Counted from the first letter of the stretch, positions 561-34,221 are shown. The stretch is DNA of 64,000 bases from Candidatus Nomurabacteria bacterium (GCA_943350875.1 CALRAL010000001.1:165017-229016); one strand, 5' to 3'. Translations and numbers: made by a program. The notes: generated by a model not told the origin, from the letters alone.

Positions 561-1804
561 TTATTTAATAATTCTACTGCTTTATCCATTTGTGGATCCT
601 CGCCTGCATCGCTATGCGAAGCATTACGGGCAGGTTTTTTATTCTCTACTTTATAATCCGGAGTGAGCCCTTTTTCAGATATTGACGTGCCGTTTGGGGT
701 GAGCCACTTTGCCACAGTTATTTTCAATATAGTATCTGGTGTGACATCTACCACTTCTTGTACTGAACCTTTACCATAGCTCTGTGTTCCCACGAGTTTT
801 GCTTTTTTATGGTCTTGCATTGCTCCTGCCAATATTTCTGAAGCAGAAGCAGAGCCTCCATCTATGAGTATGGCAAATTTTAATTTATCTGTGAATACAT
901 CATAGCCTAGACTTCGGTGTATTTTAGGCTTGGCATTGGTCCCATAGTCTTCTGTCACGACTGTCTTACCACTCTGTAAAAACCAGCTCGCCATACTGAC
1001 TGCGGCATCTAAGTATCCTCCAGGATTACCTCTCAAATCAAGCAACAATTTATCTGTTTTTGCATCGGCGAATTCCTTGACTGCTTTTTGGAAAAGTCTC
1101 GCAGAGTCGGCAGAAAAGCTGTAAAGTCTTATTATAAAAATTCCATCTTTACGTAATTCAGTATCGAGTGTAGGTACATTGATAGTATCACGGACTATTT
1201 TTATTTCTCTCGGCTCTTTATCACCTTCACGATATATAGTAAGCGTGACAGCAGTGTCTTTATCGCCTCGTATTAGTTTTATAGCTTTTTCTATACTCAA
1301 GTCAGCTGTACTTGTTTTATCTATTTTTAGAATTTTGTCACCTGGTTTTACTCCGGCTTTGTACCCAGGAGTATCTTTAAGTGGGGCTATGACAGTCAGA
1401 ACCTTGTCTTTTATACCCACTTCTACCCCTATGCCTCCAAATGATCCAGCTATGTCATCTTCGAAGAGTTTAGCTTCGTCTGGACTGAAAAATACGCTAT
1501 AAGGGTCATTTAAAGAGCCTACAAGCCCTGAAATAGCCCCATATACCCGTTTCTGGTCATTTATCTTGTTTGCGTTCGGAGACTTCTCGTTGATGGTATT
1601 CCAGACTTTCCAAAATGGAGCAAAGTCAGCTTTTGTTGTGACAGCTGTTTCTTTATTTTGTACATCTGCTTTATTTATTTCTGGAATTGATTTACTGTGA
1701 AAACCAATATAAATACCTAAAATAAAAAAACCAGCAACGAGCAGGATGAAGCTTGCAGTGCGTTTTGTTTTTAAAAATTCAAGCATTTTCTGAAAAATTA
1801 TCAA
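551..1804 (-). CDS. ctpA: Carboxy-terminal processing (S41) peptidase with PDZ domain; C-terminus carries an in-frame palindromic repeat insertion (PARNASHSDAG)
   Basis: PDZ-like GVKPGDKILKID, S41 catalytic region LILDLRGNPGG and GSASASEILAGAMQD; N-terminal TM anchor. Confidence 0.8.
   Translation of the reverse strand: MIIFQKMLEFLKTKRTASFILLVAGFFILGIYIGFHSKSIPEINKADVQNKETAVTTKADFAPFWKVWNTINEKSPNANKINDQKRVYGAISGLVGSLNDPYSVFFSPDEAKLFEDDIAGSFGGIGVEVGIKDKVLTVIAPLKDTPGYKAGVKPGDKILKIDKTSTADLSIEKAIKLIRGDKDTAVTLTIYREGDKEPREIKIVRDTINVPTLDTELRKDGIFIIRLYSFSADSARLFQKAVKEFADAKTDKLLLDLRGNPGGYLDAAVSMASWFLQSGKTVVTEDYGTNAKPKIHRSLGYDVFTDKLKFAILIDGGSASASEILAGAMQDHKKAKLVGTQSYGKGSVQEVVDVTPDTILKITVAKWLTPNGTSISEKGLTPDYKVENKKPARNASHSDAGEDPQMDKAVELLNNWK
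598..634. repeat. Family-1 GC-rich imperfect palindrome CCyCGCCTGCATCGCTATGCGAAGCATTrCGGGCAGG, copy 1, inside the ctp 3' end
   Basis: Near-identical copies at 30187, 33085 and 33948; GC-rich island in AT-rich DNA. Confidence 0.75.
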
Positions 1805-1982
1805 ACTTTTTTTCTTCCATTTTTTCTACTTCCTTTACTTCTCTTCTTAATGTAAAACTAAAATAAATCAGAGCCAAACCTGTGACAGTAAAAAATATAT
1901 TCTTAACATTATAAGGAAAACCTAAATAAGGCAAAACTGCTACCCAAATACCAAGTATCAAAAGTCTTTTTATTCTTATCAT
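1779..1982 (-). CDS. Small hydrophobic membrane protein, unknown function
   Basis: 67-aa ORF with two predicted TM segments in the operon between PBP and ctp. Confidence 0.3.
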   Translation of the reverse strand: MIRIKRLLILGIWVAVLPYLGFPYNVKNIFFTVTGLALIYFSFTLRREVKEVEKMEEKKFDNFSENA

Positions 1983-2028
1983 ATCTTTATATTATATCTC
2001 AACAAAACTACAAAATGCAAATGTATTT

Positions 2029-32976: not shown

Positions 32977-33043
32977 AATTTATTTTAATTTTTTAATAAT
33001 AAACAACTGCCAGAACGACTAATCGGGCAATTTGATAATAAAT

Positions 33044-33931
33044 TTATACCACTCCCTGTGTTAATTTTTGGTGTTCGTGACTCTCCCCGCCTGCATCGTT
33101 ATGCGAAGCATTGCGGGCAGGCTCGTGATCGTGATCACTTGATGAAATCGTAAAGTAAACCACGAGCAGCATAGAGAATATCAAAGCTTGAATAAATCCA
33201 ACCAATATCTCAAGAAACAAGAACGGGATAGGCACAACATAAGCCACAAGCGCTGATATTGAGACCAAAAGCACTTCCCCAGCAAAAATGTTTCCAAAAA
33301 GACGGAAAGAAAGCGATGCTATTTTTGCCACTTCTCCAGCTATTTCTATCAAACCAACAAAGAACGTAATAGGAGCTACGATTATAACTGTTGGCTCCTT
33401 TTTTATCTTGGTAAAGATACTACCAAGCACACTCAGATTAACATATTTATTAAAAGTTTTCCATATACCTACGGATACTACACCAAACAAATTCGCACCG
33501 ATAACAGCTGACACTGCCAGAGCTAAAGTCGTGTTCACATCTGCCGTCCCTCCACGCAAAAACGGGATGAAGGATTTTATTCCTTCGTGGTTTTCAATGA
33601 GTCCAAAGCCTCCAAGTGGTATAAGTCCAAGCCAATTATTTACTAAAATAAAAAAGAAAACAGAGATAGCCATGGGGAAAATCCTGATAGAAAGAGCTCT
33701 ATCATTCGTTACTTGATCACACATAGATAAAGCTCCTTCTGCAAAAACCTCAAAAACGTTCTGAATTCCCTTTGGAATTTCTTTTAATTTACGACGGAGA
33801 AAAATTGAAATGATAACGATAACTGCCACAGCTACCCAGCTTGTTATAAGAGCATTGGTGATATGAAAACTACCAAAATCAGTTATTTTTTCTGCGAATA
33901 TTGTTGTTTCGTGTAATATTTTTTCTTTCAT
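33044..33931 (-). CDS. atpB: Fo ATP synthase subunit a; C-terminus carries an in-frame Family-1 insertion (PARNASHNDAGG)
   Basis: Conserved Arg helix SFRLFGNIFAGEVLL. Confidence 0.85.
   Translation of the reverse strand: MKEKILHETTIFAEKITDFGSFHITNALITSWVAVAVIVIISIFLRRKLKEIPKGIQNVFEVFAEGALSMCDQVTNDRALSIRIFPMAISVFFFILVNNWLGLIPLGGFGLIENHEGIKSFIPFLRGGTADVNTTLALAVSAVIGANLFGVVSVGIWKTFNKYVNLSVLGSIFTKIKKEPTVIIVAPITFFVGLIEIAGEVAKIASLSFRLFGNIFAGEVLLVSISALVAYVVPIPFLFLEILVGFIQALIFSMLLVVYFTISSSDHDHEPARNASHNDAGGESHEHQKLTQGVV
33085..33121. repeat. Family-1 palindrome copy 3 (inside the atpB 3' end)
   Basis: CCCCGCCTGCATCGTTATGCGAAGCATTGCGGGCAGG. Confidence 0.75.
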
Positions 33932-34221
33932 AAATTCTTATTTTTTTCCCCGCCTGCATCGCTATGCGAAGCATTGCGGGCAGGTATCGAATCTTGTCTC
34001 TCTAATTTTATTTTATATTTTTTTACAGTTTTGACAATACCATAAGCTGAAAGTAAAAAAGATAAAATTATTAGTATAAAAAATATCCAAGGCTTGGTAT
34101 TGTATTTATTATCTAAATATTTTCCAATAATCAAAGCCAAAATTACGGGCACAATAATCCATGTGGATATGTCGCTAAATATTTGAACTCCTGTTTTCCA
34201 CCATATATCATTTTTACCCAT
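33928..34221 (-). CDS. Small two-TM protein at the head of the atp operon (AtpZ/AtpI-like), C-terminus extended by a Family-1 insertion
   Basis: Start trimmed to MGKNDIWW because the ORF-track N-extension overlaps a tRNA; two hydrophobic helices; position. Confidence 0.4.
   Translation of the reverse strand: MGKNDIWWKTGVQIFSDISTWIIVPVILALIIGKYLDNKYNTKPWIFFILIILSFLLSAYGIVKTVKKYKIKLERQDSIPARNASHSDAGGEKNKNL
33948..33984. repeat. Family-1 palindrome copy 4 (3' end of the atpZ-like gene, at the atpB start)
   Basis: CCCCGCCTGCATCGCTATGCGAAGCATTGCGGGCAGG. Confidence 0.75.

Follow-up and report, generated by a model that had tools for sequence, protein, structure and literature searches.

In a 64,000-nucleotide (64-kb) stretch of a Candidatus Nomurabacteria bacterium (GCA_943350875.1 CALRAL010000001.1:165017-229016; hereafter the window), I found five copies of a short G+C-rich palindromic repeat, four of which are translated in frame inside protein-coding genes. 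The initial annotation of the window had regarded this repeat either as an in-frame insertion of the kind known as Rickettsia palindromic elements (RPEs) or as an RNA hairpin that punctuates the ATP synthase (atp) operon. The analysis presented here favors, with a probability of roughly 0.7, a dispersed selfish insertion element resembling RPEs and repetitive extragenic palindromes (REPs), not an atp-specific signal. In that reading, the element is either active now or was active recently, and it is apparently undescribed.

The window has about 35% G+C with its genes mainly on the minus strand, and the repeat unit has 67% G+C. A scan with the annotated 37-mer returned four matches with 0-2 mismatches, all on the plus strand (598-634, 30188-30224, 33085-33121, and 33948-33984), versus none in 100 shuffles. 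Thus, the four near-identical copies in a single orientation are real, although the second starts at 30188 and not at 30187. Because the genes here are on the minus strand, the coding-sense strand of the element is also the minus strand. The similarity of the flanks vanishes exactly at both ends of 36 nucleotides in an alignment of 128 copies; the unit proper is therefore 36 nt long. It is an imperfect palindrome, CCTGCCCGCAATGCT-N-CGCATAGCG-N'-TGCAGGCGGG, located at 599-634, 30189-30224, 33086-33121, and 33949-33984. A looser scan of the window revealed a fifth copy, a 39-nt variant (CCTGCCCACAATGCTTCAGGCATAGCTGATGCAGGCGGG) at 22371-22409 on the minus strand.

The four coding copies are each in frame. 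Copy 1 (599-634, minus strand), which has two mismatches (T at position 9 and A at position 35), is read in frame 0 as PARNASHSDAGE and lies 15 codons before the stop codon of a Ctp/S41 peptidase open reading frame (ORF; 551-1804, minus strand), the protein tail being ..KKPARNASHSDAGEDPQMDKAVELLNNWK. Copy 3 (33086-33121, minus strand) belongs to the T/A subtype, has an A at position 23, and is read as PARNASHNDAGG 13 codons before the stop codon of atpB (33044-33931, minus strand; AtpB tail ..HEPARNASHNDAGGESHEHQKLTQGVV). Copy 4 (33949-33984, minus strand) is identical to the consensus and is read as PARNASHSDAGG six codons before the stop codon of an AtpZ-like gene (PF09527; 33928-34293, minus strand; protein tail ..SIPARNASHSDAGGEKNKNL). 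Copy 5, the 39-nt variant, adds PAHNASGIADAGG in frame to the middle of an RseP-like site-2 protease (ORF 21834-22973, minus strand). The earlier description of three copies at the extreme C-terminus in the same frame holds as to the frame and as to a position near the C-termini, while the Ctp copy stands 15 residues from the end.

Copy 2 (30189-30224, minus strand; A/T subtype) had been assigned to a plain spacer between atpA and atpG. Instead, it was revealed that this copy splits a 38-nt relic of the ancestral 5′ coding end of atpG and creates a stop codon. The segment between atpA and the present atpG start is 82 nt long (30171-30252, minus strand). It consists of nucleotides 1-28 of the relic (30252-30225), the element (30224-30189), nucleotides 29-38 of the relic (30188-30179), and 8 further nucleotides (30178-30171). 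With the element removed, the relic matches the atpG start of the orthologues, MASTKEIKRRIK. The orthologous atpG genes start with ATGGCC...AAAGAAATTAAAAGAAGAATAAAGAG (MASTKEIKRRIKS), and the window has the same sequence 82 nt upstream of the present start, split after nucleotide 28. The element was inserted there in frame 2 and is read as MASTKEIKRTCPQCYA followed by a stop codon. The present atpG gene (29271-30170, minus strand) encodes the N-terminus MLNSKEIKSRIKSIKS, which is a second copy of the relic's motif, and this working start differs from the relic at synonymous sites (MLNSKEIKSRIKS). Since the frame-2 copy gives a stop codon and atpG starts anew downstream, the element is neither spliced out nor bypassed. 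The wrong-frame insertion is tolerated only because the second copy of the atpG 5′ end provides a working start.

Is the 36-mer specific to the atp operon? It is not. A collection of species-representative genomes was scanned with a 34-nt pattern having four free positions, and the pattern was found at at least 119 loci in at least 91 assemblies, all of them metagenome-assembled or single-cell genomes; at least 128 copies were retrieved and analyzed. According to the record labels as given, 55 assemblies belong to many classes of Patescibacteria, or the candidate phyla radiation (CPR), and 25 to Verrucomicrobia, Kiritimatiellia, Lentisphaerae, Chthoniobacterales, Prosthecobacter, or Victivallis (collectively the Planctomycetes-Verrucomicrobia-Chlamydiae group, PVC). 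Seven are labeled Gammaproteobacteria, Pseudomonadales, or Bdellovibrionales, and four are unclassified. The G+C content of the loci ranges from 0.32 to 0.62 across the matches listed, so that mis-binned CPR contigs cannot account for the spread. The element has no match in the PLSDB plasmids or the INPHARED phages, and a single IMG/VR contig (L125) carries it. With Rfam 15, only tRNAs reached the gathering score in the window, and nothing covered the copies at E-values up to 5 in the 29900-34400 region. Neither Pfam nor NCBIfam has a relevant family for the repeat translated in four frames, and the tandem peptides matched no NCBIfam model at all. A protein-database search with concatenated peptide variants was uninformative because 12-residue matches cannot reach significance. 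Full-text literature searches gave nothing relevant on the element DNA, the peptide, or palindromic elements of CPR bacteria.

Five of the six frames of the element are free of stop codons. Nevertheless, the copies elsewhere are random in neither orientation nor frame. Among 50 copies inside ORFs of at least 150 amino acids in low-GC genomes, 46 are read in sense frame 0 (as PARNASHSDAGG), two in sense frame 1, and two are antisense; a greedy ORF map of these genomes gave 48 sense versus two antisense copies. About two thirds of the copies in low-GC genomes are inside long ORFs. They may lie at any position in the protein, with about one fifth within approximately 25 codons of the N-terminus and few within 60 nt of the stop codon. 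Therefore, the three C-terminal copies in the window are atypical of the family. The host proteins, as read from translated flanks and ORF clusters, are unrelated to each other and include ribosomal protein S9, class I aminoacyl-tRNA synthetases, and ABC ATPases. Between a third and two-fifths of all copies are non-coding; antisense copies and copies nested in other hairpins also occur. An explanation of the orientation by the replication strand was dropped, as GC skew is positive on the sense strand in 31 of 48 coding copies and is a weak predictor of orientation.

Comparison of filled and empty sites showed that the insertion is clean and exactly 36 nt, or 12 codons, long. In locus L058, the element splits GGGCGGTTA^GCTCAGTTG, the uninterrupted counterpart being the adjoining intact tRNA-Val gene. 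Empty copies of the split sites lie nearby in L105 (29/29 match) and L035 (34/34 match). The 3′ end of the AtpZ-like gene aligns with the L121 orthologue on both sides of the insert. The insert in the RseP-like protein is unique among its 120 closest homologues (65-72% identity), the other 119 having a loop of one to three residues at that place. No target-site duplication was found in any of these filled/empty comparisons (L058, L105, L035, AtpZ, and RseP). The flank preference is weak (A^C/G): about 55% of copies are preceded by an A, and the following base tends to be C or G. Most solo copies have no flanking duplication. Head-to-tail tandem copies with a 36-nt period were found in L030 and L056, and copies nested inside related hairpins in L004, L016, L028, L045, L054, L064, L095, and L116. 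In GC-rich PVC genomes, the element is often nested in related hairpins or occupies the loop of a hairpin that was already there. The signal for insertion into pre-existing hairpins is modest in GC-rich genomes (p = 0.02) and absent in low-GC genomes. The same site is occupied in diverged homologues in the rpsI genes of L002 and L024 and in L037 and L055, a comparison that is biased because these loci were retrieved by the pattern.

The window was compared with four related atp operons (L121-L124) that had been fetched via AtpB homologues. The operons of L121, L122, and L123 have the element only at the atpB tail, and that of L124 has none; the AtpZ genes of L121, L123, and L124 are without it. 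Thus, the AtpZ and atpA/atpG copies are specific to the lineage of the window, and punctuation of the atp operon is not supported as the reason for their presence. The A at position 23 is common to the atpB copies of the window, L121, and L122, and occurs in about 15% of all copies. This shared minority variant argues for one inherited insertion rather than three independent hits, and it makes it less likely that copies elsewhere in the genome have overwritten the site. The window thus has its atpB copy by descent from an ancestor in common with related genomes. By comparison with the homologues examined, from which they are absent, the AtpZ, RseP, and atpG-relic copies appear lineage-specific.

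A wider set of 120 AtpB homologues contains intact copies, lightly changed ones (PARDASHGDAGG and PARNASHNDADG), and clearly decayed ones (PAHNASHSDSG, PAQNASHKDADG, and STHNASHNESG). Others carry different PA...GG hairpin families (PARPHESSGAGG and PARPNGRSGG), and some tails are without any element. At the AtpB C-termini, the same site is filled in L121-L123 with the nucleotide sequence largely kept, while other orthologues are decayed or empty, in line with the RPE-like proposal. These findings suggest that several hairpin families have landed repeatedly in the AtpB tail. In this clade the tail is rich in His, Asp, and Glu, its PA...GG inserts also include PASTRQGG and PARHADASHAGG, and there are sometimes two inserts in one protein; such homologues include P0025, P0026, P0034, P0037, P0050, and P0080.

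The annotation of the neighboring genes deserves a remark. The AtpZ ORF as listed (121 amino acids, 33928-34293) starts inside a tRNA-Ile gene, and its first 24 residues (MCSSVVERCPDKTEVDGPIPSTLT) are translated tRNA. Since the tRNA-Ile gene occupies 34223-34295, the true AtpZ start is probably the ATG at 34221. The mis-called 121-residue AtpZ is also present in public protein collections, and the L123 orthologue is mis-called alike. In each of the five related genomes (L120-L124), the atp operon is preceded by a gene for a glycine-rich RRM-domain protein (34431-34772 in the window), and one or two small ORFs lie between the RRM gene and atpZ in L121, L123, and L124.

What is conserved in the element seems to be a nucleic-acid hairpin. 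At positions 16 and 26 of 128 copies, the combinations A/T (55 copies), T/A (47), G/C (16), G/T (9), and T/T (1) were found, and neither A/C nor C/A was found. The corresponding peptide variants are S..D, T..V, and A..A. This pattern follows base complementarity and not amino-acid similarity, which points to a constraint on the hairpin and not on the peptide. The sole common non-Watson-Crick pair is a G/T wobble on the sense strand, suggesting that the sense strand is the folding strand, as RNA or single-stranded DNA. Three registers of terminal pairing are possible (1-5:28-32, 5-9:32-36, or 1-6:31-36, the last including a U·G pair and a C×A mismatch), and the center has overlapping small palindromes. 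The variant subfamilies are few, favor different registers, and are not independent events. Accordingly, covariation in the alignment supports only the 16:26 pair of the predicted secondary structure. The sense-strand RNA of the window copies was predicted to fold into stable hairpins, as expected from the initial annotation. The energies lie between -15.0 and -25.1 kcal/mol and the z-scores, relative to shuffled sequences, between -2.2 and -5.3; the best hairpin is that of copy 2 (-25.1 kcal/mol). The sequence 3′ of the sense hairpin is A-rich or coding in the window copies and has no U-tract.

In the selfish-element reading, the insertions in other frames or in structured regions of proteins would have been removed by selection, and the persisting copies would add a small hydrophilic loop rich in Gly, Ser, and Asp to tails and linkers. 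A hairpin, probably of the sense strand as single-stranded DNA or RNA, would be recognized by the propagation machinery. Since, of the three atp copies, only that in atpB is shared, the AtpZ and relic copies are lineage-specific, and the relic copy is disruptive, the association with the atp operon is incidental.

Several observations weigh against this reading. Three of the five window copies are clustered in a single operon, less than 4 kb apart. In low-GC genomes, the intergenic copies are also oriented, 11 being co-directional with both neighboring genes versus three otherwise, and peptide tolerance cannot be the explanation there. The atpB site of the window is identical to those of L121, L122, and L123 at 36/36, 33/36, and 32/36 positions, and at 12/12, 10/12, and 11/12 third codon positions, whereas the rest of atpB is about 67% identical (about 39% at third positions) and the immediate flanks of the element are equally diverged. 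Such conservation is not expected of a purely neutral selfish relic and suggests nucleotide-level selection, element-linked maintenance or conversion, or site-specific re-insertion. Together with the folding constraint on the sense strand, it keeps a residual role at the level of RNA or single strands open. As the copies were fetched by a near-exact pattern, part of the similarity among them stems from the retrieval itself. An exact-sequence cluster look-up revealed no filled/empty polymorphism between near-identical genomes, the only difference being a start codon. No transposase-like gene (HUH/RAYT or DDE; RAYT, REP-associated tyrosine transposase) was noted near the copies, in a survey where no search was aimed at those families. 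An all-against-all comparison of the ORFs within 4 kb of the 128 copies showed that only housekeeping genes and GIY-YIG nuclease genes are shared, the clusters having been identified by reading and no RAYT/HUH model having been run.

Some of these observations would fit a host-beneficial RNA element, that is, an mRNA stabilizer, a processing site, or a translation-coupling signal at the cistron boundaries of atp and other highly expressed operons, with the peptide merely tolerated. The stable hairpins of the sense strand, the wobble pairs confined to that strand (G/T in nine copies and A/C in none), the oriented intergenic copies, the three copies in one operon, and the atpB copy, which lies just upstream of atpE and is conserved far beyond the synonymous expectation in three related genomes, all speak for it. 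However, the atpZ and atpA/atpG copies are missing from the four related operons, and many AtpB orthologues have a decayed copy or none. The placement at cistron boundaries noted in the initial annotation did not stand up either: the supposed spacer copy does not lie between cistrons and destroyed the original atpG start, and the 50 in-ORF copies elsewhere are mostly mid-gene or N-terminal. The lack of a U-tract and of an Rfam match is likewise unfavorable. I consider an RNA element of this kind unlikely.

The layout of the atpG relic, in which the hairpin interrupts a duplicated 5′ fragment of a gene and the intact gene comes next, recurs at tRNA genes in L018, L035, L058, L076, L077, L095, L102, and L105, where the split falls at the D-arm or immediately ahead of it. 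In most of these loci (not in L035, L077, or L105), an ORF for a GIY-YIG nuclease lies beside the tRNA gene. In the CPR loci, this ORF encodes approximately 78 amino acids and lies between the split fragment and the tRNA gene, while that of Kiritimatiellia L095 encodes 102 amino acids and is downstream of the tRNA gene. The 78-residue form consists of the PF01541 catalytic domain only, its closest solved relative being a UPF0213 protein. Among the strong GIY-YIG ORFs in the element loci, five of six have the element 10-50 nt upstream.

I scanned metagenomes for relatives of the small nuclease and fetched 80 loci. A superfamily hairpin was defined by the termini CCTGCCCGC...GCAGGCGGG or the reverse complement, with an interior of about 30-55 nt, sometimes nested. 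Considering the 52 closest relatives for which sufficient sequence precedes the gene, such a hairpin lies within 130 nt upstream in 24, versus 0 of 45 in a control region. The upstream hairpin and a tRNA gene directly downstream occur together in 17 loci, both are missing in 44, and seven loci are discordant. The downstream tRNAs are of at least eight types.

Overall, cassettes made of a split tRNA 5′ fragment, the approximately 78-residue GIY-YIG gene, and the intact tRNA gene were seen upstream of at least ten tRNA species (L058 6860-7530; L076 5390-5775; L018 2918-3300; L102 2300-2710; L095 1440-2680; and L126-L178). The cassettes of L058 are in tandem with a 297-nt unit. Locus L095 has an array of tRNA-Thr-like sequences with hairpins in the D-loop, alternating with the 102-residue GIY-YIG genes. 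The distant relatives of the nuclease (L144-L204) are without hairpin or tRNA and have a conserved motif, TTCACCCCGTTAGATAA / TTACCCCGTGAAATAATTTTAAAT, about 20-60 nt upstream of the GIY-YIG start codon.

By analogy with RAYT genes, which are flanked by REPs, the small nuclease is the best candidate for a partner enzyme, if a tentative one. Alternatively, the dispensable tRNA fragment may be a favored neutral landing site. GIY-YIG nucleases hydrolyze DNA, and no strand transfer by them is known; this activity does not account for the copying of a 36-nt unit, which is a further point against a selfish element. It is conceivable, and on balance rather unlikely, that the hairpin and the 78-residue nuclease form a hitherto unrecognized two-component mobile system of CPR and PVC bacteria. 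The hairpin would serve as the recognition scaffold of the nuclease, the flanks (GGGCGGTTA-hairpin-GCTCAGTTG) would define the cut site, and the hairpins would be copied or kept at the same sites in diverged genomes.

The same cassettes could be read differently: the hairpin might not be independently mobile and might be a repair scar or junction left after a GIY-YIG cut, when a hairpin-bearing donor is copied in, its spread being due to homing into the same sites. This possibility is suggested by the tRNA/GIY-YIG cassettes and the atpG relic, in both of which a duplicated target fragment has the hairpin at its junction, by the filling of the same site in diverged homologues (atpB, rpsI in L002/L024, and L037/L055), and by the insertions in loops of pre-existing hairpins in GC-rich genomes. 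There is also a precedent in phage T4, whose GIY-YIG homing endonuclease SegB is encoded in a tRNA gene cluster (PMC2330249), with a duplicated tRNA sequence at the junction. However, the flanks of the atpB copy were not co-converted and have diverged like the rest of the gene, and most solo copies lack the flanking duplication. Moreover, hundreds of different sites are beyond one 78-residue catalytic domain unless a guide is involved. Homing without independent mobility is therefore, in my estimation, quite unlikely.

A third explanation takes PARNASHSDAGG to be a peptide module with a function of its own, for instance as a signal for sorting, cleavage, or modification, that was spread by recombination and is under selection at the protein level. 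The use of one frame in almost all coding copies and the retention of the peptide in several AtpB orthologues would be in line with this. On the other hand, third codon positions are conserved as much as the others, the S..D, T..V, and A..A variants track base complementarity, a third to two-fifths of the copies are non-coding, and there are antisense and nested copies. The host proteins and the positions in them are unrelated, and neither Pfam nor NCBIfam has a model that matches the peptide. Covariation and the conservation at synonymous sites largely refute the peptide module, which is very improbable. An artefact of metagenome assembly, binning, or contamination is scarcely credible: all hits come from metagenome-assembled or single-cell genomes, and the plasmid and phage collections without a match are dominated by cultured organisms, but the copies are in frame in conserved genes, decay gradually in orthologues, show compensatory variation, and come from contigs of 0.32-0.62 G+C from many independent studies and assemblers, including the single-cell genome L082. 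A CRISPR repeat, riboswitch, ribozyme, intein, or bypass element was rejected in view of the lack of spacers, the lack of an Rfam match, the lengths in exact multiples of three nucleotides, and the frame bias.

Does the selfish element belong to a known family? RPEs, reportedly described by Ogata et al. in 2000, are approximately 100-150 nt long, are found in Rickettsia and relatives, and are interpreted as selfish DNA; NCBIfam includes models for RPE domains. As with RPEs, the present element is a palindromic repeat found in frame in many unrelated genes, translated in tolerated regions, and also present in non-coding DNA. It differs in being 36 nt long, in matching no NCBIfam or Pfam model, in its CPR and PVC hosts, among which it is nearly unchanged, and in its link to the tRNA-flanking GIY-YIG cassettes. 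The early idea of an RPE-like in-frame insertion was thus right about the mode, with dispersed and clean insertions in one orientation and frame and with filled, decayed, and empty sites in orthologues, and not about the family, given the length, sequence, and hosts.

REPs and REPINs are G+C-rich palindromes of 20-40 nt with many copies and a RAYT partner, according to excerpts of PMC3116915, PMC3337134, PMC3733652, and bioRxiv 10.1101/2021.07.10.451892. The present element is likewise a short G+C-rich imperfect palindrome with many copies (here at least 128) in populations near the consensus. Long persistence alongside a single-copy partner gene flanked by the repeat, which those excerpts report for REPs, would be a further likeness. 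REPs are described there as extragenic and lineage-specific, with GTAG or CGTC tags and HUH tyrosine transposases. In contrast, the present element is mostly intragenic in CPR bacteria, has CCTG...GGCGGG ends with neither tag, crosses phyla, and has GIY-YIG genes as the only association found. The literature search returned no link between GIY-YIG nucleases and REP-type repeats.

Other systems resemble the element less. It is unlike a miniature inverted-repeat transposable element in that its ends are only quasi-inverted (CCTGCCCGC vs. CCCGCCTGC) and no target-site duplication is seen at filled/empty sites. The GC clusters or 'byp' elements of yeast mitochondria are short G+C-rich hairpins that invade A+T-rich compact genomes, including coding genes, and byps are skipped by translational bypassing. 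In contrast to byps and T4 gene 60, the present element is translated, has a strong frame bias, and gives a stop codon in frame 2. Nor does it behave as a terminator or an intercistronic stabilizer, as only the atpB copy is shared with related operons, most copies are mid-gene or N-terminal, and there is no U-tract. As for SegB, that protein has a DNA-binding part, and I know of no dispersed hairpin repeat associated with it, whereas the CPR protein is a bare 78-residue catalytic domain and its cassette carries the hairpin. Transposition of the IS608 type involves recognition of subterminal hairpins, no target duplication, strand specificity, and possible circular or tandem junctions. Target duplication is absent in both cases, and the recognition of a hairpin, the strand-specific behavior, and the possible tandem junctions would also be alike, but the present element has only a weak target (A^C/G), and its orientation follows the gene strand rather than GC skew; no TnpA or TnpB was seen in the element loci. 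IS608 is an example of the single-strand transposition of the IS200/IS605 type (PMC6006769). I would place the element among the small palindromic selfish repeats, as a cross-phylum variant which, by the defining features of the two families, is neither an RPE nor a REP.

The window contains other repeats. A second G+C-rich hairpin family, CCGCTAGGTC(TTT/AGA)CCTAGCGG, has six copies in both orientations (15152-15175, 23882-23905, 61289-61312, 62187-62210, 62888-62911, and 63500-63523). The copy at 23882 is in a 759-nt ORF (23559-24317, minus strand) and is read as SARSDLAEG, and four copies lie in the last 3 kb. A third family of approximately 50-75 nt (..GTCGTGGGTCCCCTGTCC..CCCCGAGGGCGAAGGC..) is found at 6685-6761, 41142-41218, 48861-48937, and 60365-60411; two copies in long ORFs (40160-42073 and 59731-60681, both minus strand) are read as ..FALGD.., and the other two are apparently intergenic. 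A 33-nt hairpin at 7352-7384 has the termini of the 36-mer (CCTGCCCG...GGCGGG) around an interior that differs. Within an ORF resembling tRNA-dihydrouridine synthase (6738-7865, minus strand), this hairpin is in frame, is oppositely oriented, and is read as PPSPKVLGRAG. Shorter motifs related to this hairpin are found at 56570-56590 and 56890-56915 inside the ORF 56212-57588. About 14 tandem copies of a 9-nt unit (TTTTTTATA, plus strand) occupy 59600-59740, beside or within the 5′ end of the ORF 59731-60681 (minus strand). A 29-nt inverted repeat (10035-10063 and 10122-10150; 97% complementary, with arms 58 nt apart) sits where gene orientation and GC skew change sign, at about 10 kb.

Gene callers translate the element, which inflates the number of apparent 'CPR-specific insertions' in conserved proteins. 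In one comparison, the element by itself seeded many short alignments; it makes unrelated proteins look locally similar, and alignments, phylogenies, and predicted structures can be led astray by it. The relic atpG start shows what an insertion costs and how the genome can be rescued. If the selfish-element reading is true, one 36-nt sequence has colonized the housekeeping proteomes of uncultured bacteria in two groups that are very distant from each other, with ribosomal protein S9, ATP synthase subunits, aminoacyl-tRNA synthetases, and proteases among the hosts, and as a marker it would allow horizontal exchange between CPR and PVC bacteria to be traced. The notion of selfish DNA inside genes, known from Rickettsia, would then extend to free-living and episymbiotic lineages with minimal genomes. 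There may also be a new route of mobilization, via a small tRNA-tied GIY-YIG nuclease instead of a transposase. The two-component system, if true, would amount to structure- or guide-directed homing and would explain both the cross-phylum identity of the element and its conservation at orthologous sites.

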